IMG/VR virus record: IMGVR_UViG_3300023205_000043
Span: 1-43,212 of that record
DNA length: 43,212 nucleotides
Origin: a virus
Direction: 5' to 3' (one strand)
Under the pieces are notes generated by a model. That model saw nothing but the letters and a program-made list of their open reading frames with translations, was not told the DNA's origin and did not search any database. Position numbers and translations under genes: made by a program. Positions 6,964 through 31,598 of this stretch are shown piece by piece. Position 1 is the stretch's first letter. Each line of letters starts with the position of its first letter.

Positions 6964-7256
6964 TGGATATTTTACAAGGCTTACAGTTGATTGATGTTAC
7001 AGAATTAGTAGTTATCGTTTTAGTTTGTTATCTATTAACTGCCGCAACAAAACAATCCAAAATTAATAACAAATACATGCCATTTATTTCAATGGTAATT
7101 GGACTAATTGTTGGCTTAGCAATTGCTGGTGTATTTCATGATGGAGACTTAGGCAAAGCTGGATTAACTGGTTTTCTAGCTGGCGGGTACACATCGGGAT
7201 TATTTACTGGTGTTAAAGGAATTTTAGGTGGTTATGAGAAAGGTGGAAATAAATAA
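6963..7256 (+). CDS. Holin-like protein
   Basis: 97 aa with 2-3 TM segments and a charged C-terminus (YEKGGNK). Immediately upstream of, and overlapping, the endolysin start. Confidence 0.7.
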   Translation: MDILQGLQLIDVTELVVIVLVCYLLTAATKQSKINNKYMPFISMVIGLIVGLAIAGVFHDGDLGKAGLTGFLAGGYTSGLFTGVKGILGGYEKGGNK

Positions 7257-8245
7257 TGTTTAATCCAAAGATTATTAAAACTGATTATGTTTTAGGAGCC
7301 AATCAAGGCGATTCACACATCGCTCAAAGAAAATATATTATCGCTCATGAATCTGGATATGATCCAGATACTAAAAATCCAAATATGTTACTTAACGAAG
7401 TTCAAAACATGAATCATCATCTAAATACTAATAAGGCATATGTAACTCATTTTGTTGGTTTTATGGATAGTGCAAACGAGGCACAAATTTATCAAATTGG
7501 TGAACCTGGTTATGTTAGCTGGGGTGCTTTATCTGCTAATCCATATGCACCAGTTCAAATTGAATTTGCCAGAATCTATCAAAACAATAGAGACAAATTC
7601 AAGAAGGCATATCATCTATATATTGATGCACTTCGTTACTATGCTAATTTGTATGGCATTCCTTGTAAACTAGATGAATCTGGTAATGGTATTAAAACAC
7701 ACCAATGGGTAACTAATAATTATGGTGGTACTCATGTTGATCCATACGGATATTTTGAAAGTATGGGAATTAGCAGAAATCAATTTAAGCATGATGTTGA
7801 AAATGGTATTAATGAAACTGTTATTAATAAGCCAGTCGCTAAATCACATATTAATAATATCGTTCAAGTTTTGGGTAAAAAGGTTGGAGGATATACTACT
7901 TACAAATTAAATGGTAAGGCTAATGAAACGACTGACATTACTCCAAACTCCAGATGGGTATCTAATGCTATTGAAATTATCAACAACGAGCCAATGTACT
8001 GTATTGGTGGAGATATTTACATTCCACAGTCAGTAACAACATTGGCTAACAAGGCCGTTGTTAACTCTAATGTGTCTATTGATAGTCTGGATAATAATAG
8101 TAAAACCAATGGTAAACTAGCCGCTGGTAGTGATTGGAAGTTTGATGAAGTAGTAAATATTAGTGGTGCTGGATATTGCTATAAAATTGCTACTGACATG
8201 TTCCTCCCTATTAAATTCACCGTTGGTTCTGGGTATAAAGGATAA
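7256..8245 (+). CDS. Endolysin (probable amidase-type catalytic domain plus two SH3b-like wall-binding repeats)
   Basis: 329 aa directly after the holin. N-terminal His-containing motifs (IIAHESG, KTHQW, HVDPYG). Two related C-terminal segments of about 60 aa. Confidence 0.75.
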   Translation: MFNPKIIKTDYVLGANQGDSHIAQRKYIIAHESGYDPDTKNPNMLLNEVQNMNHHLNTNKAYVTHFVGFMDSANEAQIYQIGEPGYVSWGALSANPYAPVQIEFARIYQNNRDKFKKAYHLYIDALRYYANLYGIPCKLDESGNGIKTHQWVTNNYGGTHVDPYGYFESMGISRNQFKHDVENGINETVINKPVAKSHINNIVQVLGKKVGGYTTYKLNGKANETTDITPNSRWVSNAIEIINNEPMYCIGGDIYIPQSVTTLANKAVVNSNVSIDSLDNNSKTNGKLAAGSDWKFDEVVNISGAGYCYKIATDMFLPIKFTVGSGYKG

Positions 8246-8485: not shown

Positions 8486-8836
8486 ATGAAAGCATTAATA
8501 AATAAATCGCAGATAAAGCATAATACCGGTAAAGCAATTTTGGTTACTTTGCCAAATACAAATAGTAAAAAAGTATGGATACCCGAAAAATTAGTTTATC
8601 CAAACTCAGATAACTATACATGCACTGTTTATTTACCAGATTCATTCACTTTTAATGGTATATCCGGCAATGCTGGTAAGAATCGCTTTGATATTAGTGC
8701 TGATGAACTATCAGATTACTTTGAACCTATGAGCAATTCAATAGTTAAAAGAAAGTACAAGCCATCATTTATTGAACATGTTCCAGACAAGTTAAAGGCG
8801 GTGGATAGTAACGTTGATGACAGTCTTAAACGATAG
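8486..8836 (+). CDS. Hypothetical protein, first gene of the SNF2/PP-loop/ParB operon
   Basis: ATG at 8486 with AGAGG 8 nt upstream (the track start at 8477 is GTG). No recognisable motif. Its 3' end overlaps the SNF2 gene. Confidence 0.7.
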   Translation: MKALINKSQIKHNTGKAILVTLPNTNSKKVWIPEKLVYPNSDNYTCTVYLPDSFTFNGISGNAGKNRFDISADELSDYFEPMSNSIVKRKYKPSFIEHVPDKLKAVDSNVDDSLKR

Positions 8837-10004
8837 CCAAAATAAGGCCATTTCTAAACTACAACAGATTAAGGTTGGTGCCCTATTCATGGAGCCAGGA
8901 ACAGGAAAGACACTAACGGCTATCAAATTAATTGAATCAACACAATGTGATTATGTGTTATTCCTTGTTCCGTTCCAGACAAAAATTAATTTGCAAAAAG
9001 AATTTAATAAATGGAAGTTTGAAATGAATTATGAAATTCAAGGAATAGAAAGCTTATCCAGCTCAGACAGATTATATATGAACCTAACTAATAAAATACA
9101 AAAACATAAATCAGTATTCTTAATTGTTGATGAGTCATTAAAGATAAAAAATAGCAGTGCAATTAGAACTAAACGTATATTAAATTTAAGCCGGAACTGT
9201 GAGTTTAAATTAATCTTGAATGGAACCCCACTATCTAAAAATATGGTCGACTTGTGGCCACAAATGGAATTTCTTTCTCCTAAAATATTAAACATGTCAG
9301 AGGTCCAATTTAAGAATACATTTTGCCATTACATCAAATATCGTGAAACTAATCAATATGGTAAAAAAGGCAAATGGCAAGAATTCATAAAAGGATATGA
9401 TAACGTTGATTACCTGTATTCTCTTATTGATCCGTATGTATTTGATGCTGACTTAAAGATTAATAAGACCAAACAATATTCAACTATATTTTATGATATT
9501 AACGCTAACATTGACCGATATAACGAGTTAAAGCAGAGCTTTATTAATAGCTTCAGTGATGACCCAGATAGTTTCTTAAAGTACACTACATTAATGCAAC
9601 AGGCCTATTGTGATGAACCATCTAAACTAGAGGCTATTAAATCATTAGTTGATGATAAGACTTTAATATTTGTTAAATTCCTACGTTCTAAAGATGCTAT
9701 TTACAGTGTTTATCATAATGCCAAAGTATTCACCTATGGTAAAGGCTCGTTAGGACTTAATTTACAGCAATACAATAAGATAATATTTTTTGATAAAACA
9801 TTTGATTATGCTCAAAGAGACCAGGCTGAACATAGGATATTTAGAATTGGCCAAGATGATAATGTTAATTATTATTCACTAACAGGCAACGTTAATTTAG
9901 AATCAACGATTGATAGGAACATTAAAAAGAAGACTAATTTACTAACCCATTTCAAAGAGTTAACTAAGACAGGAGTTGATATAGATTGGGAAAACATTAT
10001 TTAA
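8814..10004 (+). CDS. Minimal SNF2-family ATPase/helicase
   Basis: Motif I GTGKT, motif II DESLKIKN, motif III LNGTPLSKNMVDLWPQMEFL, motif V GSLGLNLQ, motif VI QAEHRIFRIGQ. Confidence 0.85.
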   Translation: MMTVLNDSQNKAISKLQQIKVGALFMEPGTGKTLTAIKLIESTQCDYVLFLVPFQTKINLQKEFNKWKFEMNYEIQGIESLSSSDRLYMNLTNKIQKHKSVFLIVDESLKIKNSSAIRTKRILNLSRNCEFKLILNGTPLSKNMVDLWPQMEFLSPKILNMSEVQFKNTFCHYIKYRETNQYGKKGKWQEFIKGYDNVDYLYSLIDPYVFDADLKINKTKQYSTIFYDINANIDRYNELKQSFINSFSDDPDSFLKYTTLMQQAYCDEPSKLEAIKSLVDDKTLIFVKFLRSKDAIYSVYHNAKVFTYGKGSLGLNLQQYNKIIFFDKTFDYAQRDQAEHRIFRIGQDDNVNYYSLTGNVNLESTIDRNIKKKTNLLTHFKELTKTGVDIDWENII

Positions 10005-11281
10005 ATATAAATGTATATGATGCTACAGAAAAACGGCTAGAATATCTATTCAACGAGTTTGAGCATATCCACGTTGCTTTCTCAGGTGGTAAGGATAGTG
10101 GAATACTACTTAATTTAGCTTATGATTATGCGGAAAAACACAATCAGCTTGATAAGCTATCAATGCACTTTGTAGATTACGAGGCACAATATCAAGCTAC
10201 TATTGATTATGTTGATAGTGTGTTTAAATCATTGGACATTGAAAAATACTGGCTCTGCATGCCTAATTCAGTTCCTACGGCTACATCTATGCGTGAATCT
10301 TTTTGGATTCCTTGGGATAAATCAAAGCAAGATATTTGGGTACGTGATATGCCTAAATATGACTATGTGGTTAATGTTGACAATGCACCATTTGATTATG
10401 AATTTGGTACAAATGATTATGAGTTCCAAGATGATTTTAACGAGTGGGTAGCAGACAAGAATGATGGTAAGACAGCTATACTAATTGGTATTCGTGCTGA
10501 TGAATCGCTAGACAGATACCGAGCCATTGCTTCCAATAATAAAATTAACAGCTACCAGGATAAAAATTACGTTACTAAGAAGAATGATTTTTATATGGCA
10601 TATCCTATCTATGATTGGACCGTTGACGATATTTGGACTGCTAATGCTAAATTAGGATTTGAGTACAATTCTATATACGACCTATACTTTTATGCCGGCA
10701 TTCCAATTAATAAAATGCGTGTCGCTAGTCCTTTCTTATCGCAAGGAATGGACACATTAAAGTACTACCAGGTGATTGAACCGAATACCTGGGCCAAGAT
10801 GTTAGGACGTGTCAATGGTGTTAATTTTGCATCAATCTATGGATCAACAACTGCCATGGGTTGGAATAAGATTAAGCTGCCAAAAGGAATGACTTGGAAG
10901 TCTTATGTAAAGTTCCTTTTAAAGACTTTGCCAGAACAAACTAGAAAAGATTACGAAAAGATATTCGCTACTTCTTTTGAGTTTTGGGCAAAGCGTGGCG
11001 GAGTTCTATCAAAAGAAACTATCCAGGAATTAAATGATGCTGGTATTCCATTTGAGGTAAAGGGACAAACTAATTACAAGACTGATAAGAGTGCCGTCAC
11101 ATTTGAAGACTACCCGGATGATGCACCAGTTAGGGAATTTAAGACAGTTCCATCATATAAACGTATGGCTATCACAATTATGAAAAACGACCACACAGCA
11201 AAATATATGGGGTTCAGCCGTACAAAAGAACAACAAGAAAGAAGGAAGAAAGCAATTGCCAAATACAAAGAAATTTTCTAA
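9986..11281 (+). CDS. PAPS-reductase-family PP-loop ATP pyrophosphatase, IbrA-like
   Basis: PP-loop HVAFSGGKDSGILLNL and IGIRADESLDRYRA. A long C-terminal extension as seen in IbrA-type proteins. TTG start overlapping the SNF2 stop. Confidence 0.8.
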   Translation: MGKHYLNINVYDATEKRLEYLFNEFEHIHVAFSGGKDSGILLNLAYDYAEKHNQLDKLSMHFVDYEAQYQATIDYVDSVFKSLDIEKYWLCMPNSVPTATSMRESFWIPWDKSKQDIWVRDMPKYDYVVNVDNAPFDYEFGTNDYEFQDDFNEWVADKNDGKTAILIGIRADESLDRYRAIASNNKINSYQDKNYVTKKNDFYMAYPIYDWTVDDIWTANAKLGFEYNSIYDLYFYAGIPINKMRVASPFLSQGMDTLKYYQVIEPNTWAKMLGRVNGVNFASIYGSTTAMGWNKIKLPKGMTWKSYVKFLLKTLPEQTRKDYEKIFATSFEFWAKRGGVLSKETIQELNDAGIPFEVKGQTNYKTDKSAVTFEDYPDDAPVREFKTVPSYKRMAITIMKNDHTAKYMGFSRTKEQQERRKKAIAKYKEIF

Positions 11282-12275
11282 ATACATAACATATCCGCAA
11301 GTAGCAAGTAAAAGATATTTAATTGATGTCGACGGGAATATTTTTGATGAAAAATTAAATAAAAATCCAAATATCAGGTCCGATAAGGACGGTTATAATA
11401 TCGTAAGTCTGTCAACTTTGAAGAAACGCTCTCAAAATTTCAAGGTACACAGACTGGTTGCATATGAATTTATAAAAAATGATGATAAAGAAAGTAAAAC
11501 ACAAGTAAATCATAAAGATGAGAATAAGCAAAATAACAATGTAACTAATTTAGAATGGTGTAGTCCTGCTTATAATATTAATTATGGAATGAGAACTAAG
11601 AGATCGGTAGACCATAGAGCTAAGAGAATCGCTCTGAAAAATGTAAATACTGGTGAAGTGGTGACGTTTGACAGTATTTCATCAGCATGCCGACTAATGC
11701 AACTAGACATGAGACATTTAGGAGAAACATTAAATGGAAAAAGAAAGACAATTAATGGATATAAGGCTTGGTATCTAGAAAGTCCAGCTTACAACGTAAT
11801 AACTGTTCCTATTGAAAAAATTCAGGCTAATACTTATAACCCTAACCACGTTGCACCGCCAGAAATGAAACTATTATATGAATCCATTAAAGATGACAAT
11901 TATACTATGCCGATTGTCTGCTACTACTTAAAAGACACAGATAAATATGAGATTGTTGACGGCTATCACAGGTATACAGTAATGCTTAATCATAAGGATA
12001 TTTATGATCGTGAACATGGGTGTTTGCCAGTTAGTGTAATAGATAAGCCTATTGAAGACAGAATAGCATCTACTATCCGCCATAACCGTGCAAGGGGAAC
12101 TCATGATGTTGACCTAATGAAGAACATCGTTAAGGAATTAACCGAGTCAGGAATGTCGGATAATTGGATAATGAAAAACATCGGTATGGATGCTGACGAG
12201 TTATTAAGATTGAAACAAATCAATGGATTGGCGTCATTGTTTAAAGATAAAAACTTTGGAAATAGTTGGGAGTAA
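11256..12275 (+). CDS. Fusion protein: HNH homing-endonuclease module (NUMOD4/HNH_3-like plus DNA-binding tail) joined in frame to a ParB/Srx-fold IbrB-like domain
   Basis: N-terminal half: YLIDVDGNIFDE, KVHRLVAYEF, VNHKDENKQNNNVTNLEW and INGYKAWY, which parallels the stand-alone HNH at 19808. C-terminal half: IVDGYHRYTV and STIRHNRARGTH. There is no stop and no plausible start between the two halves. Confidence 0.75.
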   Translation: MPNTKKFSKYITYPQVASKRYLIDVDGNIFDEKLNKNPNIRSDKDGYNIVSLSTLKKRSQNFKVHRLVAYEFIKNDDKESKTQVNHKDENKQNNNVTNLEWCSPAYNINYGMRTKRSVDHRAKRIALKNVNTGEVVTFDSISSACRLMQLDMRHLGETLNGKRKTINGYKAWYLESPAYNVITVPIEKIQANTYNPNHVAPPEMKLLYESIKDDNYTMPIVCYYLKDTDKYEIVDGYHRYTVMLNHKDIYDREHGCLPVSVIDKPIEDRIASTIRHNRARGTHDVDLMKNIVKELTESGMSDNWIMKNIGMDADELLRLKQINGLASLFKDKNFGNSWE

Positions 12276-13635: not shown

Positions 13636-13664
13636 AATATATATCTTTTCTGTGTGGGAGTCAA
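13636..13664 (-). promoter_or_regulatory. Promoter of the 13250-13591 gene
   Basis: On the minus strand: TTGACT (13659-13664), a 17-nt spacer, then TATATT (13636-13641). Confidence 0.6.
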
Positions 13665-13778
13665 TACTCTAAGGCAGAAACAATAAAGATAAAGAATGCA
13701 ATCACATACACATAGAGACTCATGCCGCACCATTAGATCTACGTTTAGCATAGTATATTACACATTTAATCCAAAAAA

Positions 13779-13821
13779 ATATACTTAGTATATTTACTAT
13801 ATTAAGTATACTAAGTATATT
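13779..13821. repeat. AT-rich repeat cluster (TATACT-T/A-AGTATA palindromes) immediately downstream of the parA operon; candidate centromere/iteron site
   Basis: ATATACTTAGTATAT ... TTAAGTATACTAAGTATAT. Related boxes occur at 15001-15071. Confidence 0.6.
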
Positions 13822-14097
13822 TTATTTTCTGCTATCATATATATTTCTTTCAGTATCTGTCAGTGTATTTAAGTACGCGTCTACTGCCAATTCTACAACC
13901 TTATACATTGGTATGTCTTTTACATATGCTATGTTTCCAATGGTTTCCTTAACAGGTGGATCAAGCTGGACAGGGACTCTATCCTTCGCCTTAAATTTTT
14001 TATCGGTATATGATATTTCAACATCGTCATCAACCTTTATATCCTTGGCTTCAATTTGTTTTCTTTTAAGTTCCTTATTACTTGGTAATAATGCCAT
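13822..14097 (-). CDS. Small partition/centromere-binding protein candidate (RHH-like; RepC/ParG-type position)
   Basis: 91 aa, overlaps the parA stop. The C-terminal beta-strand plus two helices pattern (VQLDPPVKETIGNIAYV...VVELAVDAYLNTL) fits an RHH fold. The call is positional. Confidence 0.55.
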   Translation of the reverse strand: MALLPSNKELKRKQIEAKDIKVDDDVEISYTDKKFKAKDRVPVQLDPPVKETIGNIAYVKDIPMYKVVELAVDAYLNTLTDTERNIYDSRK

Positions 14098-14986
14098 TTA
14101 ATTTTATCTCTTTTCCTAATTTTAACGTCTTGTTATTTAGCATATCGAAATACTTAAATTCATATTTAAACCCTGTAAAGTCTCCGGTCTCTTCAAAATA
14201 TTTAATTCTTCCTTCAAGTTCACAAAAGAAATCACAAAATATAGACCATATTTTTCTATCATGATAATCTGATAAAGCAATTCCGGTTTCACCAAATGTT
14301 TCTAATCTATCGTGATATTTAAGAAGCGTCATAAATACATTTTCACGACCATATTCTTCAATGGTTTCTTCAGCGTTAAGCTTTTGCTTTTTCTTGCGAT
14401 TATTTAGAATTGCTAATAATATACCTGCAATTTGAAAGTGTGCGTCATCCGGAAAGTTTTCAAGGATTGGAGTTAAATATCCCTCAATCAAGGCTGACGT
14501 TCCGTCCATTGAGAAACGTTTTGCTTCTTGAACTGGAATGATATAGTCAGTAACCATCATTATTGAATCAACTGAATTATCACCTGAAGGAGCAACGTCA
14601 AAGAAAATATAATCATAGTCATTCTTAATTTCATCAACCATTCCTTTTAAAAATAAGTATCTTTCTTTTTTATTTTTAGAGTGATCTATTATCCATTCAT
14701 TCAAATCGTGGGTTCCAAGCGATCCGGCTATAAAATCTAAATTATCTGAAAGATGGATAATTGCATTTTTTAATGTACCGGATTCAACCGCCTTGGTAAA
14801 CGATTGTGGATATTTTGTTATTCCAAAAGTTCTACTTATATTCTGTGTTGAGTTTGCCTGTAAATCGACATCAATTAATAATATTCTTTTGTTAAATATT
14901 TGGCTTGAAACAATCGCCATCATATCGGTGTCTGTGGTTTTACCAACTCCACCCTTTAAATTGGTGAGAACAACTACCTTGCCCAT
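14078..14986 (-). CDS. parA: ParA/Soj-family partition ATPase (RepB-like in pAD1 nomenclature)
   Basis: Deviant Walker A LKGGVGKTT at the N-terminus, DVDLQANS, and FFDVAPS (Walker B-like). 302 aa. Confidence 0.9.
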   Translation of the reverse strand: MGKVVVLTNLKGGVGKTTDTDMMAIVSSQIFNKRILLIDVDLQANSTQNISRTFGITKYPQSFTKAVESGTLKNAIIHLSDNLDFIAGSLGTHDLNEWIIDHSKNKKERYLFLKGMVDEIKNDYDYIFFDVAPSGDNSVDSIMMVTDYIIPVQEAKRFSMDGTSALIEGYLTPILENFPDDAHFQIAGILLAILNNRKKKQKLNAEETIEEYGRENVFMTLLKYHDRLETFGETGIALSDYHDRKIWSIFCDFFCELEGRIKYFEETGDFTGFKYEFKYFDMLNNKTLKLGKEIKLNGIITK

Positions 14987-15000
14987 AATTTTCTCCTTAA

Positions 15001-15071
15001 AATATACTTAATATATTCACTATACTAAGTATATTCACTATATTTAATATATTAAGTATACTAAATATAGT
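15001..15071. repeat. AT-rich repeat cluster upstream of parA (between parA and repA); candidate centromere/iteron and parA promoter region
   Basis: Two 18-bp-spaced copies of ATATTCACTATA (15013, 15031), plus the boxes ACTAAGTATA, TTAAGTATAC and ATATACTTAATATAT. Confidence 0.6.
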
Positions 15072-15104
15072 GCTACTTGTCAAAAATATATTTGATACAT
15101 AGTG

Positions 15105-15133
15105 TTGACAGTCAGAATTCACTAAGCTATATT
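15105..15133 (+). promoter_or_regulatory. repA promoter
   Basis: TTGACA (15105-15110), a 17-nt spacer, then TATATT (15128-15133). It is followed by a leader of about 250 nt. Confidence 0.65.
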
Positions 15134-15142
15134 ATAAGTAAC

Positions 15143-15267
15143 AAAAAAGCCCACCCGTTAAACGAGTGAGCCAAAGAAAAAAAGCGTTGAGACAATAGTT
15201 ACTACCAATAACTAAAGTTTCAGCAAGTGAATAGAGCAAGTATTCACCGCTTTTAACGCTACCTTTA
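15143..15267 (-). ncRNA. Predicted countertranscript (antisense RNA) against the repA leader
   Basis: Minus-strand promoter TTGATT-16-TATAAT (15274-15301). A minus-strand-specific terminator at 15143-15170 (CUCACUCG/CGGGUGGG including two G-U pairs, then U6); on the plus strand those positions are A-C mismatches. Confidence 0.35.
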
Positions 15268-15384
15268 ACTTGTATTATACTATGAAGGTAGGAAAAATCA
15301 ATTATGTGATTGATTTCGTTAAGTCGGTGAAAGTGTTACGAATTCATCGGCTTTTTTTCTTCTTAAAAATAAGGAGAGTCAATC

Positions 15385-16338
15385 ATGACAAAAAACAAAG
15401 AATTGAAATTACAAATGGAAAAAGCAAAATTAGCTTTCATCCAACCAAAAAACTATATCGCACTATTTGATTTAGGAGATAAGTCTTTAAATGGTAATCC
15501 TACTATTTTGTTTTCAGCAATTTACAATCGTCTTGGATCAAGTGTTCAAAATGGATCAGATTACTTCGATAAAAAAATGGGTGAGTTTTACGTAATTTAT
15601 GAATATAGCGAATTAGCTGAATTAATCAATGCTTCTACAAAGACAGTCTCAAGAATGATGGATAAATTAGTTGCTGCTGGTTTAATTTTTAAGAAGAAGT
15701 GTTTTAACGGAGTTTACAGATTATTTCCCTCACTTCCAGATTCAGCAAAAGAAAAATTTCTTGGTTTAAATGAAGAAACTCCTGATACACCGGAAGTAAC
15801 ACCCGAAAACACTGATACAACACCAACGGACAAAAAGTCTCCTACGAAGTGGACAGATTTTCGCTTTAATTACTTGAACTTGAACTACTTAATCTCTTTT
15901 ACTAATAAGGCTATTAATACGCCCGAGCCAATTAATTTCGATACTCAATCAATTGACGGATATGCAGACACTCTAATTAACAACGTTTCCGTTCCAGAAG
16001 ATGCCGTTAATACTGTTAAATCGTTATGTAGTAATAACTATGATCGTATGCACAACATCATGAGTCAAATGTTTAATGCTAAAAAAAGTGTTTACAATAA
16101 TGCTTCAAGACAAGGGCTAGATTATGCTCTTTGGGGTACAATGTTTGAAGAAAACAAGTTCATTCAAATAGGACTTAATGCGACTATGCAACGAGCAGTT
16201 AGAAAAGCTTACCGTGAAATTGAAGATCAGACTGGTAGAAATAAATTCATGTTTACTTGTTTCAAGAGCTTTTTTGAAGAATCATTGATTAATTATCATC
16301 AATTTGGTACACCCGAAAATAAACCACAGTATAACTAA
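15385..16338 (+). CDS. repA: Plasmid replication initiator, RepA_N family
   Basis: N-terminal pattern YIALFDL...LFSAIYNRL...YVIYEYSELAELINASTKTVSRMMDKLVAAGLI is typical of Firmicutes RepA_N initiators. AAGGAGAG RBS. Low-complexity TP-rich and repeat-containing centre. Confidence 0.8.
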   Translation: MTKNKELKLQMEKAKLAFIQPKNYIALFDLGDKSLNGNPTILFSAIYNRLGSSVQNGSDYFDKKMGEFYVIYEYSELAELINASTKTVSRMMDKLVAAGLIFKKKCFNGVYRLFPSLPDSAKEKFLGLNEETPDTPEVTPENTDTTPTDKKSPTKWTDFRFNYLNLNYLISFTNKAINTPEPINFDTQSIDGYADTLINNVSVPEDAVNTVKSLCSNNYDRMHNIMSQMFNAKKSVYNNASRQGLDYALWGTMFEENKFIQIGLNATMQRAVRKAYREIEDQTGRNKFMFTCFKSFFEESLINYHQFGTPENKPQYN

Positions 16339-16497
16339 TTTTCACAAGATTAATAAAAACTGAAATACCGAAATAATAACGTTTGTGAGTGCCTGTTTAC
16401 CTATACCAATTTCATTTCACAAAGTTAGTGTCTGAAAGCGTTGGTAAATAAGGGACTTCTTATACCATGTATTATGTAACCTTGGAGGGAAAATACT

Positions 16498-16884
16498 ATG
16501 ATTAATGATAATTTTATAAACGTAATTACAAAATTGAATGAATATCAGAGGACTGATTTTGGCGAATACGCAAAGGACTTTGCTGGCCTAACAGTTATGA
16601 GCGGAACTGACTATTTGAATATGATCAGGGCCATGGCTAAGGACGAATCCTTAACAGATGTTTTAGACTTAGTTCAAAAACTTGGTAGCAAAAATATTTT
16701 TATCACTTCAAATCTAAGTGAAGTAAACGATTGGGATACTGTTTTAAAGTACACAGATGGCCCTGAGATAGATTCAAACAATAAGATTCACGTTAATGTT
16801 AGATATTACATTTATGACTCTACAATTGACTATGCTGAGGGTTCATATGGATATAAGCTCAATAAGCTCATGAGCAATAAATAA
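16498..16884 (+). CDS. Hypothetical acidic protein (128 aa)
   Basis: GGAGGG RBS. About 19 D/E versus 13 K/R by my count. Confidence 0.7.
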   Translation: MINDNFINVITKLNEYQRTDFGEYAKDFAGLTVMSGTDYLNMIRAMAKDESLTDVLDLVQKLGSKNIFITSNLSEVNDWDTVLKYTDGPEIDSNNKIHVNVRYYIYDSTIDYAEGSYGYKLNKLMSNK

Positions 16885-16956
16885 AAAAGTAGAGAAGATC
16901 TATATTATAAGTAAGAGCTAAATGAGAGCTCTAATAAAAGAAATGGAGGTATTATA

Positions 16957-17283
16957 ATGAATAATACCAAAGATAGTTATACTTTAGAAACATTGATGGG
17001 GGATTATATTTGTGACAAAACTGGAGAAAATAGATTACGTTTCCCTGACTTATATCCAGATTTGGTTTCAGATGCTTTAAATTATAAAGACGGATTTGTT
17101 AAAGGTGTAACTATTTTCGCTAATATGGTTCATATATATCAGCCTGAAAGCGGATCAAATATTTCGGATTTTATATCAACCGAGGAGTCATCTTTGACAA
17201 AGGTTATCGAAAGTAAAATCTTTTCATATGATGATTCAGATGTTGAAGATTGTTATGACTTTTTAGAAAAGCTAGTCAAATAG
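16957..17283 (+). CDS. Hypothetical strongly acidic protein (108 aa)
   Basis: GGAGG RBS. About 21 D/E versus 10 K/R by my count. Confidence 0.7.
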   Translation: MNNTKDSYTLETLMGDYICDKTGENRLRFPDLYPDLVSDALNYKDGFVKGVTIFANMVHIYQPESGSNISDFISTEESSLTKVIESKIFSYDDSDVEDCYDFLEKLVK

Positions 17284-17290
17284 AATATTA

Positions 17291-17325
17291 AAAGGACTGA
17301 TAGCTTAATTGCTGTGGTCTTTTTT
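17291..17325 (+). terminator. Terminator-like hairpin with T-run after the repA-side operon
   Basis: Interrupted stem GGAC..GATAGC / GCTGT..GTC followed by T6. Confidence 0.5.
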
Positions 17326-17355
17326 ACTATAAAATCATAAATAAATAATCATCGT

Positions 17356-17415
17356 AGTATAATAACTGTTACTTATTGATGAATTTATTACACAATAAGT
17401 AACAATTATTATACT
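17356..17415. repeat. 23-bp inverted repeat (1 mismatch) with a 14-bp spacer
   Basis: AGTATAATAACTGTTACTTATTG (17356-17378) against the reverse complement of CAATAAGTAACAATTATTATACT (17393-17415). Confidence 0.85.
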
Positions 17416-17433
17416 TTATGCTACAATTAACTA

Positions 17434-17498
17434 GCAAAGAAGAATGAACATAGATACACAAAATCCCCCAACTATCGCAAGTAGTTGAGGGATTTTTT
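17434..17498 (+). ncRNA. Predicted antitoxin sRNA of the type I TA locus (RNA II-like)
   Basis: Extended -10 TGCTACAAT (17419-17427). The segment 17436-17459 repeats 17592-17616 (24 identical nt with two 1-nt gaps), so it is complementary to the toxin mRNA start region. Ends at terminator 17463-17498. Confidence 0.45.
17463..17498. terminator. Bidirectional terminator shared by the convergent toxin mRNA and antitoxin RNA
   Basis: ATCCCCCAACTA / TAGTTGAGGGAT stem (1 mismatch). T6 on the plus strand; TTTGTGT on the minus strand. Confidence 0.7.
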
Positions 17499-17522
17499 AG
17501 TGGGCTAAATTGCCTTTATATT

Positions 17523-17609
17523 TTACTTGCGATGTTTACCATTTAGCCAATCGGTAAACAAAACAGTTATCAAGCTGATCGCAAGGGGCACAAAGAATGA
17601 ATGAACCAT
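17523..17609 (-). CDS. Type I toxin peptide, Fst/PepA1-like (28 aa: MVHSFFVPLAISLITVLFTDWLNGKHRK)
   Basis: Absent from the ORF track because it is under 60 aa. GGAGG (17617-21) lies 7 nt upstream of the ATG. A single TM helix is followed by a DWL motif and a basic tail. A 5' UTR hairpin (CAATCC/GGATTG, 17621-17638) abuts the SD. Extended -10 TGGTACAAT at 17658-17666. Confidence 0.65.
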   Translation of the reverse strand: MVHSFFVPLAISLITVLFTDWLNGKHRK

Positions 17610-17847
17610 AGATACACCTCCAATCCGTTGCAGGATTGATGTAAGGCAACAGTTAATATTGTACCAGTAAGTAGTCAAAATTGGAGATGATTTAACGGAC
17701 TATAATGGTACCATATCGATAGAAAGCGCCTAATAATACTGATGTATAAGTATTTATAATATGACGTAAAACATATAATTTATTTAATTCATATCACCAT
17801 ATATAGATATAACGGTAGATAACTGATATAAATATAAAGCAAACAAT

Positions 17848-18198
17848 TTAATTTTTATCTGTTTTTTTCTCATTAATAATATCATCGGCGGTAATAACTC
17901 TATTATTCATAGTCTTTTTTAGCGCCTTGTACTTTTTCCACTCTGACTTAGTCATAAAGAATGTTTCTTTATTAGTAGAATTTACTACCTTGTAAACATT
18001 TGAAAATACATAAAGATCTAATAATGCACCAATCCAAAAAATAACTCCAAGACCATAGATCCAAATTGTTAACGCACCAATTATAATCTCGATAATTTGT
18101 CTTTTCTTAAATGTTCTACCTAGTTTTGGAAGTGTTTTATTTTGGTCTCTTAGTTGGTTAAGAGTTGCTAGTTGTAATAGATTTCCTAAATTATTCAT
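17848..18198 (-). CDS. Membrane protein next to the repressor (candidate superinfection-exclusion/immunity function)
   Basis: The ATG at 18198 has GGGG 7 nt upstream (track start 18228). Two adjacent TM segments (IIEIIIGALTIWIYGLGVIFWIGALLDLYVF). Confidence 0.65.
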   Translation of the reverse strand: MNNLGNLLQLATLNQLRDQNKTLPKLGRTFKKRQIIEIIIGALTIWIYGLGVIFWIGALLDLYVFSNVYKVVNSTNKETFFMTKSEWKKYKALKKTMNNRVITADDIINEKKTDKN

Positions 18199-18241
18199 AT
18201 ATTTACCCCATAATATTAATTTAATCAATTTAAGTATATCA

Positions 18242-18315: not shown

Positions 18316-19026
18316 TCATAAATCAGTTGTATATCTGATTGCTTTTCCTATAATTCTACCAGGGTTATCCTTAGTTAAAATTATTGGATTGAATGAAGGA
18401 TTGTCTGGCATTAATATAACCATTCCTTTTTGATACTTTATTCTTTTTAAAGTTGCTTCTGAGTCACTATTAACTAGAACAGCAGCTATTTCACCATCTT
18501 CAACTTCTGGTTGTTCCTTAATTAGAACCATTGATCCATCTGGAATAGTAGGTTCCATAGATTTTCCCTTAGCTGCTAAATAAAAAATGTTTCCGTTTGG
18601 TAATGAATCTTGAGGTTCCTCAATATATCGTTCTATATTTTCTTCAGCGGTTATTGGATCACCACAAGCTATAGTTCCTAGAACGGGAATATTTATAGTT
18701 TTACTTTTTTGAATTAATTTTTCTTTAACTGTTCCTGGTTCATCTTCAATTCCCATTATATATAGTGGAGATACATTCAATATTTTTGCTAATTTTCTGA
18801 CAACTTCAACCGGCATCTTGTCGGTTTCACCACTTTCATATCTATAAATCGTGGTTTTAGAGACTCCAATAAGTTTTCCTAAAGTCTCAGCTGACATATT
18901 ACGTCTAGTTCTTGCTGATTTTAAAGTACTGCGCTCCTTTCCACTAGCGCTACGTTTTTTTGTCCATTCTTTATTTTTATCATTTGTAATAAAATTTGAT
19001 TTTAGTTTTATTGTCTTATCTGGCAA
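18316..19026 (-). CDS. CI/LexA-like repressor (XRE HTH plus S24 autopeptidase)
   Basis: HTH LGKLIGVSKTTIYRYESG. S24 motifs AAKGKSMEPTIPDGSMVLI and ATLKRI. Confidence 0.9.
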   Translation of the reverse strand: MPDKTIKLKSNFITNDKNKEWTKKRSASGKERSTLKSARTRRNMSAETLGKLIGVSKTTIYRYESGETDKMPVEVVRKLAKILNVSPLYIMGIEDEPGTVKEKLIQKSKTINIPVLGTIACGDPITAEENIERYIEEPQDSLPNGNIFYLAAKGKSMEPTIPDGSMVLIKEQPEVEDGEIAAVLVNSDSEATLKRIKYQKGMVILMPDNPSFNPIILTKDNPGRIIGKAIRYTTDL

Positions 19027-19170: not shown

Positions 19171-19380
19171 ATGGGAATTAAAGTTCAAAAACTACGTGGA
19201 AGAATTATTGAAGAAAACTATACCCAAGCGGGTGTAGCTGATTTATTAAAGATGAATAGATCAACATTTTATAGAAAAATGAAAACTGGTGGCAAAACGT
19301 TTACTGTTGGTGATATCAAAAAGATGAAAGTAATACTTCACTTAGACTTAGATGATGTAAGTGATATTTTTTTAAAATAA
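19171..19380 (+). CDS. Cro/excisionase-like small HTH protein
   Basis: 69 aa. HTH YTQAGVADLLKMNRSTFYRKMK. First gene of the rightward operon, with a GAGGGGAAG RBS. Confidence 0.75.
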   Translation: MGIKVQKLRGRIIEENYTQAGVADLLKMNRSTFYRKMKTGGKTFTVGDIKKMKVILHLDLDDVSDIFLK

Positions 19381-22981: not shown

Positions 22982-23737
22982 ATGTCAATATTACGAGCAA
23001 AACGGAAAACCAATTATACGATTATGGGAAACATGGGCTTGAAGGATAAAAGAATTTCTTTAAGGGCAAAGGGGCTTCTAGCTTATATGCTTAGTTTACC
23101 AGATGATTGGGTTTTCTATGAAACGGAACTGACAGACCATTGTACAGATGGACGAGATTCTATAAGGGCATCATTAAGAGAACTGGAAAAATTTGGCTAT
23201 TTAGTAAGACAGCAAAAACGAGCTGTTGGAGGTAAGTTTGGTCAGAAAGATTGGAAAGTCCTTGATGAGCCTACGTTTTCACCGTGGACTGATTTGCCGT
23301 CGACGGTCAAACCGTCAGCGGGTTCACCGTCGGCGGTCAATCCAACACTACTAAGTACTAATAAACTAAGTACTAATAAACTAAGTACTAATAGTAATAG
23401 TCCGAAGTCTAAAAAGCAGACTTATGGACCTGATGATTTGAATTATAAATTAGCAAATTTGCTTTTGAATAAGATTAAAGAAAACAATCCAAATGCTAAA
23501 ACACCTAATATACAGAAATGGGCTAACTCAATCAGACTAATGCATGAAAGAGATAGTCGGTCATATGATGATATTGAGAAGATGATTACCTGGTCTCAGT
23601 CAAATGAGTTTTGGTCGGGAGTAATTCTTTCAACTACAAAGTTACGTTCAAAATATGATCAGATGTTTGTACAAGCAAACAAACGAAAAAGAAGTAATAA
23701 GTCTAAACGTAATCATGATTATGAATTGCCATATTAG
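22982..23737 (+). CDS. Replisome organiser / DnaD-like replication initiation protein
   Basis: N-terminal winged-helix pattern (LRAKGLLAYMLSLPDDWVFYETEL...SLRELEKFGYLVRQ). Internal DNA repeats. Directly upstream of the DnaC-like loader. Confidence 0.7.
   Translation: MSILRAKRKTNYTIMGNMGLKDKRISLRAKGLLAYMLSLPDDWVFYETELTDHCTDGRDSIRASLRELEKFGYLVRQQKRAVGGKFGQKDWKVLDEPTFSPWTDLPSTVKPSAGSPSAVNPTLLSTNKLSTNKLSTNSNSPKSKKQTYGPDDLNYKLANLLLNKIKENNPNAKTPNIQKWANSIRLMHERDSRSYDDIEKMITWSQSNEFWSGVILSTTKLRSKYDQMFVQANKRKRSNKSKRNHDYELPY
23297..23394 (+). repeat. Direct repeats inside the organiser gene: candidate phage replication origin
   Basis: CCGTCGACGGTCAA (23297) and CCGTCGGCGGTCAA (23327) are 30 bp apart. 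These are followed by 3 tandem 15-bp units CTAAGTACTAATAAA (23351, 23366, 23381). Confidence 0.6.
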
Positions 23738-27160: not shown

Positions 27161-27701
27161 TTTCATTTATAAAAATTACAAAGGTATTAGTAGTCGGGAA
27201 TTAACCAAGAAGTTTAATAAGAAATTCAGTACAAGTCGAGAAAGTACTTCTATAAATGCCTTTAAAGGCCACCATAAATTAAAAAGCGGCTATAACAATT
27301 ATTTCAAGCCTGGAAACCAACCATGGAATACAGGAACAAAAGGATTGGTAAAGGCTAATAGTGGTTCTAGGAAACCAGCACCAATAGGGAAAATCTATTC
27401 TAGTAGCGGTCATAATCTTATTAAAACTGTTAACGGTTGGCAACAATATTCACGTTATAAGTATGAGGAATACCATGATTGCAAATTAACTCCAAATGAA
27501 CGAATTAATTTCTTAGACAATGATAATACAAACTTTGCCAAGGAAAATCTAATCAAAGTCACAAAACAGGAAGTAGCACGAATTCATCGCGAAGGATATT
27601 TGTATGATGATCCAACCTTGAATAAAGTTGGAATAAGTATGGTCAGATTAAAAATGAAAGTTAGAGATATTTCTAATGCTAACAACAGAAAAGATAAATG
27701 A
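27135..27701 (+). CDS. HNH-type (HNH_3-like, possibly degenerate) endonuclease
   Basis: GNQPWNTGTKG and INFLDNDNTNFAKENLIKV patterns. The ATG at 27135 has AGGAA 9 nt upstream. Confidence 0.55.
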   Translation: MKYTKEQIDFIYKNYKGISSRELTKKFNKKFSTSRESTSINAFKGHHKLKSGYNNYFKPGNQPWNTGTKGLVKANSGSRKPAPIGKIYSSSGHNLIKTVNGWQQYSRYKYEEYHDCKLTPNERINFLDNDNTNFAKENLIKVTKQEVARIHREGYLYDDPTLNKVGISMVRLKMKVRDISNANNRKDK

Positions 27702-28359
27702 ATTAATTGGTGTTGATGATTCATGGAAAGCGCCAGAGAAATTATTAAAAGTATTACTGAATAAATCGCAACGCGAGGAACTATTTAATAACTTTCTTAG
27801 AAATGAAACAGATATGAGTTTCGACTGGTTCCATATGTATTTTCAAGATGAAGCGGCAGACCGTAAGAAAATGAAACAAGATTTTACACCACAATCTGTT
27901 TCGATGATATTGAATAGGCTAGTTGAACCTAAGAACGATAACTATTTTGAATGTGCAGCCGGTACAGGTGGTATTGCTATTAACCATTACTACCAACAAT
28001 GCTTGAAACAATATCCATGGGACTATCAACCAGTCGAACATTATCACATGTTAGAAGAATTATCAGACAGAGCAATGCCGTTTCTGTTATTCAATTTAGC
28101 AATTCGTGGCATGAATGCTACCGTAATTCAAATTGATAGTTTATCGAGAGATAAATGTAAAGGCGTATTCTTCATTCAAAACATTAAAAATGATGCTTTA
28201 AGTTTTAGCAGTATTAACGTAATGCCATATTCGGATATGGTGAAAAATGAATTCAATATTAAGAGTTGGGATAGTCAACGATACCCTGAACATATTGAGG
28301 ATAATTTAGGAGATGTATTTGATGCAAAATCAATTAAGCGTATCAAGGAGATTCAGTAA
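27676..28359 (+). CDS. N6-adenine-methylase-like protein (HsdM-like core; no clear NPPY/F motif)
   Basis: DFTPQSVSMIL, FECAAGTGGI (motif I) and ELSDRAMPFLLFNLAIRG. No (D/N/S)PP(Y/F) found by eye. Only 227 aa. Confidence 0.5.
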   Translation: MLTTEKINELIGVDDSWKAPEKLLKVLLNKSQREELFNNFLRNETDMSFDWFHMYFQDEAADRKKMKQDFTPQSVSMILNRLVEPKNDNYFECAAGTGGIAINHYYQQCLKQYPWDYQPVEHYHMLEELSDRAMPFLLFNLAIRGMNATVIQIDSLSRDKCKGVFFIQNIKNDALSFSSINVMPYSDMVKNEFNIKSWDSQRYPEHIEDNLGDVFDAKSIKRIKEIQ

Positions 28360-29470
28360 TAATGTGGAAATGTTTTATAGAGGAACCGATGGAAAAACTA
28401 GAAAAATCAGTAGAAAGGGGCTAATTGAAAAAGTTAGAAATATGACTTTTTATGATTACTATAAATGGTTTATTGCCAACGAAAAGGAGGGCAAAATTCG
28501 AGGAGTTACCTTAGACAAGTATCTTATGACTCTGAAGTGGATTAATGAAATAGCTCCGGATATGTTGCTGATTGATCTGGAAAGTAACAGACAAAACCTA
28601 CAGTTTCTATTAGATGAATATGGTAAAACACATCAAAGAGCTACAACGATGGATTTTAGAACTCAACTTGGAGCCGGATTAGGATTTGCTGTTGATGACG
28701 GTTATATCCATAGTTATGCAAAGACCGGAATTACAATTCATTCAATTGAAGATACATGGACTCCAGAACAGATAGCAGCACAGAAACAGCAAATCAAATC
28801 TTTCAGTGCCACACAGTTTAATAAGTTTAAATCGTATGTTGATTTTAAGCTGGACGCTATGTTAGACCAAGAGCCTATTTATCACGGTGAAGATTATACA
28901 AGATCAGAAAAAGGAATGAATACAAGTACTAGTTATCAACTATATTACATGCTATTTGCTGTTTTGATTCACACAGGAGTTAGATACGGAGAGGCGATGG
29001 GCTTTGAATATTCCGATATAACCCCTGGCGATATTAACATAAGTAAAACTTGGAAATATAGAAGTACAGTGGGCTGCTTTCAACCAACAAAGAATAGAAG
29101 CTCAATAAGACTAGTAACAATTGATAATACACTTTATGAACTATTAAAAAAATATTATCAATTTAAAGAAAAATATGGAATTCCAAACGATCCGGATAGA
29201 CCACTATTAAATGAAAACGTAAGAATTTTTAACAGTACGGTTAACAATTTATTAGCAAGCGTCGAGAAACATTTGGGACTCCCAAGACTAACTGCACATA
29301 AGTTAAGACATAGTTACGCCTCATATCTTTTATATCAAGATATTCCGGCTCAAATTGTTGCAAAACAGCTAGGACATACAGATACAAGTATGCTTTTTAA
29401 AGTTTATGCCCATATTCTTGAAGAAAAGAAGCGTGCGTCAGATGAAAAGATTAAAGGGTTATTAGCATAA
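28322..29470 (+). CDS. Tyrosine recombinase (phage integrase family)
   Basis: C-terminal catalytic pattern TGVRYGEA ... HKLRHSYASYLL ... LGHTDTSMLFKVYAHI. The ATG at 28322 has AGGAG 9 nt upstream. Confidence 0.85.
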   Translation: MQNQLSVSRRFSNNVEMFYRGTDGKTRKISRKGLIEKVRNMTFYDYYKWFIANEKEGKIRGVTLDKYLMTLKWINEIAPDMLLIDLESNRQNLQFLLDEYGKTHQRATTMDFRTQLGAGLGFAVDDGYIHSYAKTGITIHSIEDTWTPEQIAAQKQQIKSFSATQFNKFKSYVDFKLDAMLDQEPIYHGEDYTRSEKGMNTSTSYQLYYMLFAVLIHTGVRYGEAMGFEYSDITPGDINISKTWKYRSTVGCFQPTKNRSSIRLVTIDNTLYELLKKYYQFKEKYGIPNDPDRPLLNENVRIFNSTVNNLLASVEKHLGLPRLTAHKLRHSYASYLLYQDIPAQIVAKQLGHTDTSMLFKVYAHILEEKKRASDEKIKGLLA

Positions 29471-31372: not shown

Positions 31373-31527
31373 AACCCTGTTTTAAAGGATTATATTAGTA
31401 TCATAGATAATTTTGGTAAGAGTTATCTATACTTTCCGTTGTATTGGTTTTTGCATTGTAAACCTCCTTTATTTTATATGACTCAATTAGCTGGTGACTG
31501 ATTCATACGCAGTGCCGGCTTAATTAT

Positions 31528-31598
31528 AGGAATTTGGTGTAATGGTAACACCGAAGACTTCAAGCCTTCTAATGTGAGTTCGATTCTTACAATTCCTA
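31528..31598 (+). tRNA. tRNA with anticodon UCA (would decode UGA); the A1-U72 acceptor start is reminiscent of bacterial tRNA-Trp
   Basis: Manual fold: acceptor AGGAATT/AATTCCT, U8, D arm GTGT-AATGGTA-ACAC, anticodon arm GAAGA-CTTCAAG-CCTTC (31-39 is A.C), T arm GTGAG-TTCGATT-CTTAC, discriminator A. 71 nt. Confidence 0.7.

Follow-up and report, generated by a model that had tools for sequence, protein, structure and literature searches.

We analysed a viral DNA of 43,212 nt (IMG/VR record IMGVR_UViG_3300023205_000043, positions 1 to 43,212; hereafter the window) and found that it combines a temperate siphovirus genome, from metagenomes of lactic acid bacteria, with an intact Gram-positive low-copy plasmid backbone. 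All parts of this backbone are grouped within 4 kb, bordered on one side by the lysis/accessory genes and on the other by the gene of the cI-like repressor: a RepA_N-type initiator gene with its leader, a prgP-prgO partition operon and an Fst-type toxin-antitoxin locus. An immunity switch, the lack of a canonical int-attP and a complete, conserved plasmid backbone are together best explained by a phage-plasmid. On the basis of gene content and of the circular assembly, we give a probability of about 0.7 to a lysogenic state in the form of a low-copy circular plasmid and not of an integrated prophage. The coordinates of the features are collected in Table 1.

The first and last 141 bases of the window are identical; therefore, it represents a circular assembly with an exact terminal repeat and a unit genome of 43,071 bp, in which the tape-measure open reading frame (ORF) crosses the circular junction. 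The phage gene set is full, comprising packaging, head, tail, lysis and lysogeny-switch genes, with an HNH gene adjoining the terminase and an early module of ERF, replisome-organiser, DnaC-like and SSB genes. The siphovirus modules consist of long intact ORFs in canonical order. By gene content, the full HK97-type phage described in the initial annotation of this DNA is thus complete, temperate and HK97-like, and the genome is most likely that of a complete circular temperate HK97-type cos siphovirus of Lactobacillaceae. In the phage and plasmid records searched, no relative of its large terminase subunit (TerL) exceeds 54% identity. The host is probably a Companilactobacillus or a relative; the endolysin narrows it to Lactobacillales, no finer.

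The partition module had been noticed from the letters alone as a parA gene with a small ribbon-helix-helix (RHH)-like gene (14986-13822, minus strand), flanked on both sides by AT-rich repeat clusters. Profile searches place both products above the NCBIfam equivalog cut-offs for PrgP and PrgO, and PrgP also matches Pfam AAA_31 (94.6 bits) and CbiA and displays the KGGVGKT Walker A motif of a ParA-type ATPase. PrgP and PrgO are the pCF10 names for RepB and RepC of pAD1. The 91-aa PrgO, a presumed centromere-binding adaptor whose gene overlaps the prgP stop by 20 nt, has no Pfam match, and its RHH-like label was not confirmed. PrgP shares 62% identity with annotated prgP products from plasmids of L. 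plantarum, L. brevis and L. pentosus. One of these plasmids, pPUL102_3 of L. brevis, was inspected, and its prgPO faces a primase-type Rep. Among phage records, tblastn detected no PrgP relative above 36% identity, and scans of IMG/VR with PrgP and with a PrgP alignment returned no relatives.

The repeat clusters are arrays of 9-bp units detected by TRF, one 5′ of prgP (the repB position) and one 3′ of prgO (the repC position), as in pAD1 and pCF10, with a repeat sequence unlike that of pAD1. The downstream array is an inverted match to the upstream one. The consensus TATAYTWAR is found 27 times in the window, a number reached in 0 of 100 shuffles, and 16 of these matches fall inside the two arrays. 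The same two-array layout is present in the prgPO cassette of the L. brevis plasmid. As in pAD1/pCF10, the operon of a ParA and a small adaptor is divergent from rep, with opposing promoters at 15083..15055 (minus) and 15105..15133 (plus).

The product of repA has the domain plan of a putative N-terminal winged helix-turn-helix (HTH), a variable linker and Bac_RepA_C. The latter (PF18008) covers residues 204-299 and is matched by all three members of the family. With a profile made of RepA and two relatives, the top four PDB matches are staphylococcal RepA_N N-terminal domains (4pta, 4pt7, 5kbj and 4pql), all of them weak (E 0.0025-0.04), and precomputed assignments of a newer Pfam give PF06970 to all three family members. 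The RepA_N-type initiator proposed initially is upheld by the C-terminal profile and, weakly, by the PDB matches, but not by the Pfam RepA_N profile that we ran, which stays below its cut-off. The family is rare, with three clusters among 5.8 billion proteins. By tblastn, relatives of RepA occur in 58 plasmid records, all from Lactobacillaceae (the best, from Companilactobacillus, at 47.5%), and in none of 50,697 phage records. The IMG/VR scan with RepA found no relatives, a metagenome scan yielded one further relative (48%), and among the GTDB species representatives RepA is found in five Companilactobacillus species only.

The relatives of RepA lie on plasmids or plasmid-like contigs and are likewise divergent from a partition operon. 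The partner of those at 88% and 48% identity is a ParA with a DUF5388 protein, not PrgP/PrgO, and at the DNA level the window is similar to the 88% relative over 15173-16425 only. Since rep and par have different nearest relatives, the block appears, on sequence comparison, to be a mosaic of plasmid cassettes, neither a copy of one plasmid nor a descendant of pAD1. This shuffling of rep/par cassettes is seen when 13822-16338 of the window is set against five other contigs and plasmids (L018, L019, L009, L010 and L026). When the block was compared by megablast with phages and plasmids, nothing matched. The two ORFs of 128 and 108 aa that follow repA have no significant Pfam, NCBIfam, PHROG or PADLOC matches and are present in every contig with the block.

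The structured repA leader, initially put at about 250 nt, measures ~244 nt and is conserved in three lineages, namely the window, the 88% relative and the Companilactobacillus plasmids (alignment A3). RNAalifold predicts 43 pairs in it, 12 of which show compensatory changes. Near its 3′ end, an attenuator-like hairpin (15321-15358; 11-bp stem, -11.9 kcal/mol) is followed by U7, and the repA Shine-Dalgarno (SD) sequence lies just 3′ of it (15372-15378). The relatives have a hairpin and U-run at the same place of the leader with a different sequence. Furthermore, the opposite strand is predicted to encode a countertranscript RNA (ctRNA), with a promoter TTGATT-16-TATAAT (15301..15274, 10/12 matches) and an intrinsic terminator of 11 pairs (15172..15148) followed by a T-run. 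The fold of the ctRNA strand has an energy of -39.3 kcal/mol (z = -5.26 against shuffles). In the relatives, the terminator hairpin and the -10/-35 boxes are found at conserved positions, with different sequences. This predicted arrangement follows the logic of antisense copy control, and the hairpin followed by a U-run suggests that the downstream step would be transcriptional attenuation. As to the top of leader hairpin 2 (A3 columns ~86-100), the C. nuruki and C. halodurans plasmids (L024, L025) carry CGCTGGTAACA, and the other Companilactobacillus plasmids (L009, L021, L022, L023) carry its reverse complement, TGTTACCAGCG, i.e., the hairpin loop is inverted and the structure retained.

The third component is the convergent toxin/antitoxin RNA locus with an Fst-like peptide, which was already suspected and which comparison with four Lactobacillaceae plasmid loci confirms (alignment A1, five loci including the window). 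By tblastn, the peptide has 14 matches in 7.3 Gb of plasmids, 14/14 in Lactobacillaceae, three of which are annotated as Fst family toxin (PGAP). The SD hairpin, the terminator and the peptide motif FFAPLxVxLIxxxFxxWLxxKxxK are conserved in A1. The 5′ stem-loop burying the toxin SD (CAATCC...GGATTGGAGG at 17638..17617) is kept with base changes in the four plasmid loci. The two RNAs converge on a bidirectional terminator and the antitoxin is complementary to the toxin start: the 5′ 27 nt of RNA II pair with the toxin SD, the start codon and the first six codons (-33.7 kcal/mol; z = -9.3 against shuffles), which is its best non-self target in the window. All five loci possess, 3′ of the terminator, a copy of their own start region, with diagonal scores of 35-44 versus off-diagonal scores of 15-30. 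This locus-specific co-variation is what the par RNA I/RNA II mechanism predicts. The Rfam fstAT model, built from enterococcal sequences, scores 29.1 bits (E 0.017) against a gathering threshold of 72. A permissive Rfam search gave in addition a sub-threshold match to the RsaJ 3′ end (38 bits) at RNA II.

The union of plasmid replication and partition genes with a phage replicon is reproducible. An identical RepA is encoded on eleven contigs from JGI, ENA and Logan samples, in which the block has the same neighbours at 99.8-100% identity, namely a 113-aa gene and the IbrA/B-like genes at its left junction and cI at its right junction. The contigs around the recombinase described below were found through its neighbour gene; these 9 and the 11 repA contigs come from at least 8 samples and have phage context on both sides. 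Among the ~20 contigs examined, none has a junction with a Lactobacillaceae chromosome. One contig, L005 (JGI 3300020818, Ga0214277_10413706), begins with 324 nt (1-324) of 50% G+C that encode a FocA/FNT-type fragment (SGFEHSIANIF) and are joined to position 11853; this head is a misassembled enterobacterial-type FocA and not a host junction.

Several points weigh against the phage-plasmid reading. The plasmid state is inferred from gene content and circular assembly; circular assemblies also arise from replicating or cos-joined DNA, and integrase-bearing prophages have been deposited as circular 'plasmids'. The Pfam RepA_N profile (PF06970) reaches 22.3 bits (E 1.2e-4), under its gathering score of 30, and the AlphaFold model of RepA from a three-sequence alignment is too poor to be used (pLDDT 40.8). 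No convincing iterons were found inside repA; the repeats in its interior are weak and two-copy (15775-15819, and ACTTGA x2.5 at 15872-15886). Pfam and NCBIfam profiles miss the Fst peptide, with both the 28-aa and a 51-aa peptide tried, and the ctRNA and the attenuator are predictions. Finally, the window encodes an intact tyrosine recombinase (R...HxxR...H...Y), and this enzyme might mediate integration.

As initially reported, there is no recombinase between the lysis genes and cI; this slot holds an SNF2 helicase, an IbrA/IbrB-like pair, small ORFs and the plasmid block. What had been missed is the tyrosine recombinase at 28.3 kb, whose gene overlaps the end of a methyltransferase gene at the junction of early and late genes, 9.3 kb from cI, and whose closest PDB matches are integrases, XerA and IntI4. 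Two circular 'plasmid' records of PLSDB with a related TerL, NZ_CP123583.1 (L. curvatus, 37 kb) and NZ_LR135421.1 (E. faecium, 38 kb), have a canonical integrase in the lysis-cI slot. Such records were considered as proof of phage-plasmid status and rejected, as both of those inspected are integrase-bearing temperate phages without rep/par, i.e., excised or induced prophages. In that of L. curvatus, a 3.3-kb segment of early genes is moreover present in duplicate.

We consider it unlikely that the window is an ordinary integrating phage, in which the product of 28313..29470 would be the integrase acting on an unrecognised attP and the block would be redundant, transient or defunct cargo. The catalytic signature of the enzyme, its matches to PHROG 1 and Phage_integrase and its ~27% identity to many canonical phage integrases speak for such a role. 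Among phage proteins, the enzyme is closest to the second 'putative integrase' of Latilactobacillus phage TMW 1.591 P1 (47% over the full length, E 1e-121), which sits in the same methyltransferase-recombinase-late-genes context. In addition, TMW 1.591 P1 encodes a canonical Int beside cI, with which the window recombinase shares 25% identity, in the catalytic domain only. Moreover, the orthologues (45-78%) lie between early and late genes and not at prophage ends: those at 78% and 45% are mid-genome in a 77-kb scaffold and in a Latilactobacillus chromosomal prophage (CP186861), flanked to the left and right by 10 kb or more of phage genes. Orthologues placed mid-genome and coexisting with a canonical Int indicate that this recombinase clade does not join those prophages to the chromosome. 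In the window, there is no attP-like repeat nearby and no lox/dif/attP-like inverted repeat near the recombinase, and 9/9 contigs with the neighbour gene keep phage context without any host junction. As for the block, its completeness, the conservation of its regulatory RNAs and its near-identity across samples argue for selection and against defunct cargo. From these comparisons, the 28.3-kb recombinase is probably not the lysogeny integrase; by analogy, it is a speculative candidate for a multimer resolvase of the plasmid state.

The cassette of a methyltransferase (~227 aa) and a recombinase recurs in different Lactobacillaceae phages and prophages (L011 12699-14472, L033 9352-11140 and L035 9331-11134), and the next-closest recombinase clade, at 33-34% identity, includes HsdS-recombinase fusions. 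The cassette may serve as a resolvase, as an invertase or in methyltransferase control.

Another way to account for the combination is capture of a phage by a plasmid, or a phage-like plasmid that is defective; the element would then replicate as a plasmid and no longer produce infectious virions. Cryptic prophages are common on plasmids, and Companilactobacillus plasmids with a related rep carry stray phage capsid genes. We rate this origin as improbable, considering that every siphovirus module is intact and in canonical order, that outside the 4-kb block there is no plasmid cargo, relaxase or insertion sequence (IS) element, and that near-identical genomes occur in many samples of several projects.

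Four contigs from four samples (L003, L004, L005 and L007) end in a perfect 23-40-nt fold-back centred on a unique 10-bp palindrome, ATGGTACCAT (17705-17714), where the plasmid block has its right edge. Together with the presence of an enzyme of the tyrosine recombinase family, these ends could evoke an N15-like linear plasmid prophage with hairpin ends. However, the left arm is not mirrored in the window beyond the axis, which speaks against a telRL-type palindrome; fold-backs of a right arm are absent, the right-hand contigs cross the axis normally and five other contigs read through; and the 385-aa protein is of the integrase type, not a protelomerase. Given that the site is not a long palindrome and that no protelomerase is encoded, an N15-type telomere is very improbable. 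The fold-back ends are likeliest to be palindrome-primed chimeric reads that broke low-coverage assemblies; for the ERZ17990074 contig pair, to which alone the figure applies, coverage is ~7x, so that few chimeric reads could break the assembly. They could also reflect a real hairpin or an inverted-dimer intermediate. Two other contigs begin beside another 10-bp palindrome, CCGTCGACGG, at 23297 (23290-23306). Lastly, although metagenome assemblies can be chimeric and L005 has a foreign 324-nt head, the misjoining of a plasmid fragment into a phage contig is excluded by the presence of both junctions in contigs from independent samples and different assemblers.

Under the phage-plasmid reading, the maintenance of the element could be envisaged as follows. 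The winged-helix initiator RepA would start theta replication from an origin probably located inside or beside repA, while the ~120-nt countertranscript from the leader would set repA expression and hence the copy number, its pairing with the nascent leader favouring the terminator-like hairpin just 5′ of the SD. PrgO would bind both 9-bp arrays and the ParA ATPase PrgP would then segregate the copies; the upstream array may also autoregulate the par promoter. RNA II would mask the toxin start region until its decay, so that loss of the element would kill the cell, the stable RNA I outliving the short-lived RNA II and allowing synthesis of the 28-aa Fst membrane toxin. The cI/Cro switch would hold the lytic genes off and, after induction, the ERF/replisome-organiser/DnaC-like/SSB module would drive lytic replication. 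More speculatively, the methyltransferase-linked recombinase may resolve plasmid multimers as Cre does for P1.

Table 1. Position of the plasmid-type block and of the main phage features in the window.
Feature	Coordinates	Strand	Evidence or remark
Tail genes and amidase	1.7-8.2 kb; amidase 7256..8245		
Downstream centromere-like array	13777..13826		Just past prgO; TRF 13780-13822, period 9, 4.8 copies
prgO (pAD1 repC equivalent), 91 aa	13822..14097	minus	NCBIfam NF041284 PrgO equivalog, 103.3 bits (cut-off 100)
prgP (pAD1 repB equivalent), 302-aa ParA-type ATPase	14078..14986	minus	NCBIfam NF041283 PrgP equivalog, 426 bits (cut-off 400)
Upstream centromere-like array	14998..15083		TRF 15001-15069, period 9, 7.7 copies; 18-bp unit, 3.7 copies
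prgPO promoter, TTGACA-17-TATACT	15083..15055	minus	Promoter scan, 11/12; overlaps the upstream array
repA promoter, TTGACA-17-TATATT	15105..15133	plus	Promoter scan, 11/12
repA mRNA leader, ~244 nt	15141..15384	plus	Promoter to ATG; four conserved hairpins
Predicted ctRNA, ~120 nt	~15266 to 15141, within 15141..15301	minus	
repA, 317-aa putative theta initiator of divergent RepA_N type	15385..16338	plus	Pfam Bac_RepA_C, 31.5 bits (cut-off 25)
Two co-oriented ORFs, 128 aa and 108 aa	16498..17283	plus	Between repA and the toxin locus
Convergent Fst RNA I/RNA II type I toxin-antitoxin locus	17434-17666		
Antitoxin RNA II, ~70 nt (~17434-17506)	17399..17506	plus	Extended -10 promoter TGcTACAAT, 17399-17427
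Bidirectional intrinsic terminator common to RNA I and RNA II	17461..17499		Fold; position kept in four plasmid Fst loci
Toxin RNA I, predicted ~190 nt	17461..17666	minus	Extended -10 TGGTACAAT at 17666..17658
Putative Fst-family 28-aa peptide ORF, MVHSFFVPLAISLITVLFTDWLNGKHRK	17609..17523	minus	
SD-sequestering hairpin	17638..17621	minus	SD GGAGG at 17621..17617
cI-like repressor, HTH and S24 autopeptidase	19026..18316	minus	Pfam Peptidase_S24, 98.1 bits; HTH_3, 48.4 bits
Cro-like HTH protein	19171..19380	plus	Divergent from cI
DNA methyltransferase	27676..28359	plus	Pfam N6_Mtase, 27.3 bits
Tyrosine recombinase, 385 aa	28313 or 28364..29470	plus	Pfam Phage_integrase, 67.9 bits; PHROG 1 'integrase', 146 bits
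Packaging and head genes (P27-type TerS, TerL, portal, ClpP-type protease, HK97-fold capsid)	33.4-38.6 kb		

Other genes surround the block. On its 5′ side are an SNF2-family helicase (8814..10004), a PAPS-reductase/DUF3440 protein of IbrA/DndC-like type (9986..11281) and an IbrB-like protein in which an HNH-NUMOD homing-endonuclease domain is fused to ParB_N (11256..12275). The PADLOC matches of the genes in 8814-12275 are weak only (ZorD, DpdE and DndC); together they may serve in DNA modification or anti-defence. A predicted membrane protein of 126 aa is encoded between the Fst locus and cI (17848-18228, minus); it has a marginal PADLOC match to KwaA (E 8e-4) and might act in superinfection exclusion or defence as part of the lysogeny module.

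Three tRNA-like genes lie 5′ of the packaging module (31527-31600, 31799-31875 and 32490-32557). One of them has the anticodon UCA and would read UGA (selenocysteine according to ARAGORN; Rfam tRNA 56 bits), another has an anticodon loop of 8 nt and one is a tRNA-Arg(CCU) called by ARAGORN alone. The phage ORFs read normally in code 11. At gathering thresholds, Rfam finds in the window two tRNAs and nothing else.

Phage-plasmids as such are already known, being common in Firmicutes and predicted in lactobacilli, and they are increasingly recognised as vehicles of gene flow. To our knowledge, those of lactic acid bacteria are known from computational catalogues only and their maintenance systems have not been dissected. 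Of the unusual lineage announced in the initial annotation, what survives is the rep/par type, found in no phage collection searched; the general rarity does not, as phage-plasmids are common and those of a pLP39 community have been catalogued. By sequence, the rep and prgP of the window appear new, as none of the phage records or IMG/VR contigs searched has this rep or a close prgP, and the phage is distant from known ones. A stronger formulation, which we regard as doubtful, would make it the first described Lactobacillaceae siphovirus with a P1-like low-copy plasmid prophage built wholly of Gram-positive plasmid parts (RNA-controlled RepA_N, PrgP/PrgO with two arrays, and Fst), with the recombinase as a Cre-like resolvase and the fold-backs as a real replication or processing site.

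The compact, delimited 4-kb cassette, comprising a replicon, a copy-control RNA, a partition system and an RNA toxin-antitoxin, is directly testable and might be turned into a vector backbone of narrow host range. It could account for the persistence of a temperate phage in food/silage-type Lactobacillaceae without integration, and it points to a reshuffling of rep and par cassettes among plasmids and a phage. Such prophages would go unseen by prophage finders that rely on integration, can be filed wrongly as plasmids and may transduce plasmid-type traits among starter and probiotic strains.

Among known systems, the pAD1-type layout proposed at first holds in its main lines. Like the E. faecalis plasmids pAD1 and pCF10 (repA/prgW, repB/prgP, repC/prgO and par-Fst), the window has a putatively RepA_N-type rep divergent from the par operon, arrays on both sides of this operon and a convergent Fst RNA I/RNA II locus. 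What does not hold is descent from a single plasmid of this type, given the mosaic composition, and the leader control resembles that of pSK41. The differences are numerous: the repeats are 9-bp TATAYTWAR versus 8-bp TAGTARRR in pAD1, the N-terminal domain of RepA is very divergent and no origin repeats are evident inside repA. In addition, the long repA leader, with its predicted ctRNA and attenuator, has no described counterpart in pAD1; the Fst peptide belongs to a Lactobacillaceae subgroup (FFAPL...WL...K) and is not pAD1 Fst itself; and pheromone and conjugation genes are absent, the backbone being that of a phage.

In its predicted control by a countertranscript, the leader is reminiscent of pSK41 or pIP501/pT181. 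In pSK41, rep has a long leader with a countertranscript whose stem-loops lie ~100 nt 5′ of the start, Rep consists of an N-terminal domain, a linker and a C-terminal domain, and RNAI (~83 nt) acts by sequestering the ribosome-binding site (PMC5703833). The long leader, the antisense countertranscript and the three-part Rep are shared with the window, where they are predicted from sequence; the ctRNA is longer here (~120 nt), a hairpin and U-run are present, and there is no sequence similarity to pSK41. According to a review on staphylococcal plasmids, RNA control has not been seen in RepA_N plasmids beyond staphylococci (PMC5703833); if real, the present case would extend antisense-RNA control to a non-staphylococcal RepA_N lineage, which is a small extension. 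The closest RepA proteins (47-48%), the same leader/ctRNA architecture and a divergent partition operon are found on exopolysaccharide (EPS)/conjugative plasmids of Companilactobacillus (pLNT-1, NZ_CP049367; CP011954). These differ in having a ParA (~270 aa) with DUF5388, a second replicon and, in the stretches examined, stray capsid-type phage genes only and no phage genome.

As for other phage-plasmids, EF62phi of Enterococcus and those of the B. cereus group and of C. difficile are likewise (putatively) extrachromosomal temperate Firmicutes phages with ParA-type genes; the EF62phi ParA matches the window PrgP in tblastn at 28% identity. In a pLP39 community, 17 putative phage-plasmids, mostly of lactobacilli, have been reported (PMC7969092); the likeness to the window lies in the occurrence of putative phage-plasmids in lactobacilli. 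The functional parallel with P1 is the broadest. P1 is a 94-kb enterobacterial myovirus with an iteron RepA, ParAB-parS, phd/doc and Cre-lox, so that no parts are homologous, and its toxin-antitoxin is a protein pair while that of the window is RNA-based. Nevertheless, the two share the same functional kit: a low-copy replicon, a ParA/adaptor/centromere system, a killing system, a C1-type repressor, separate lytic replication and a tyrosine recombinase that could resolve dimers, a role assigned in the window by analogy only.

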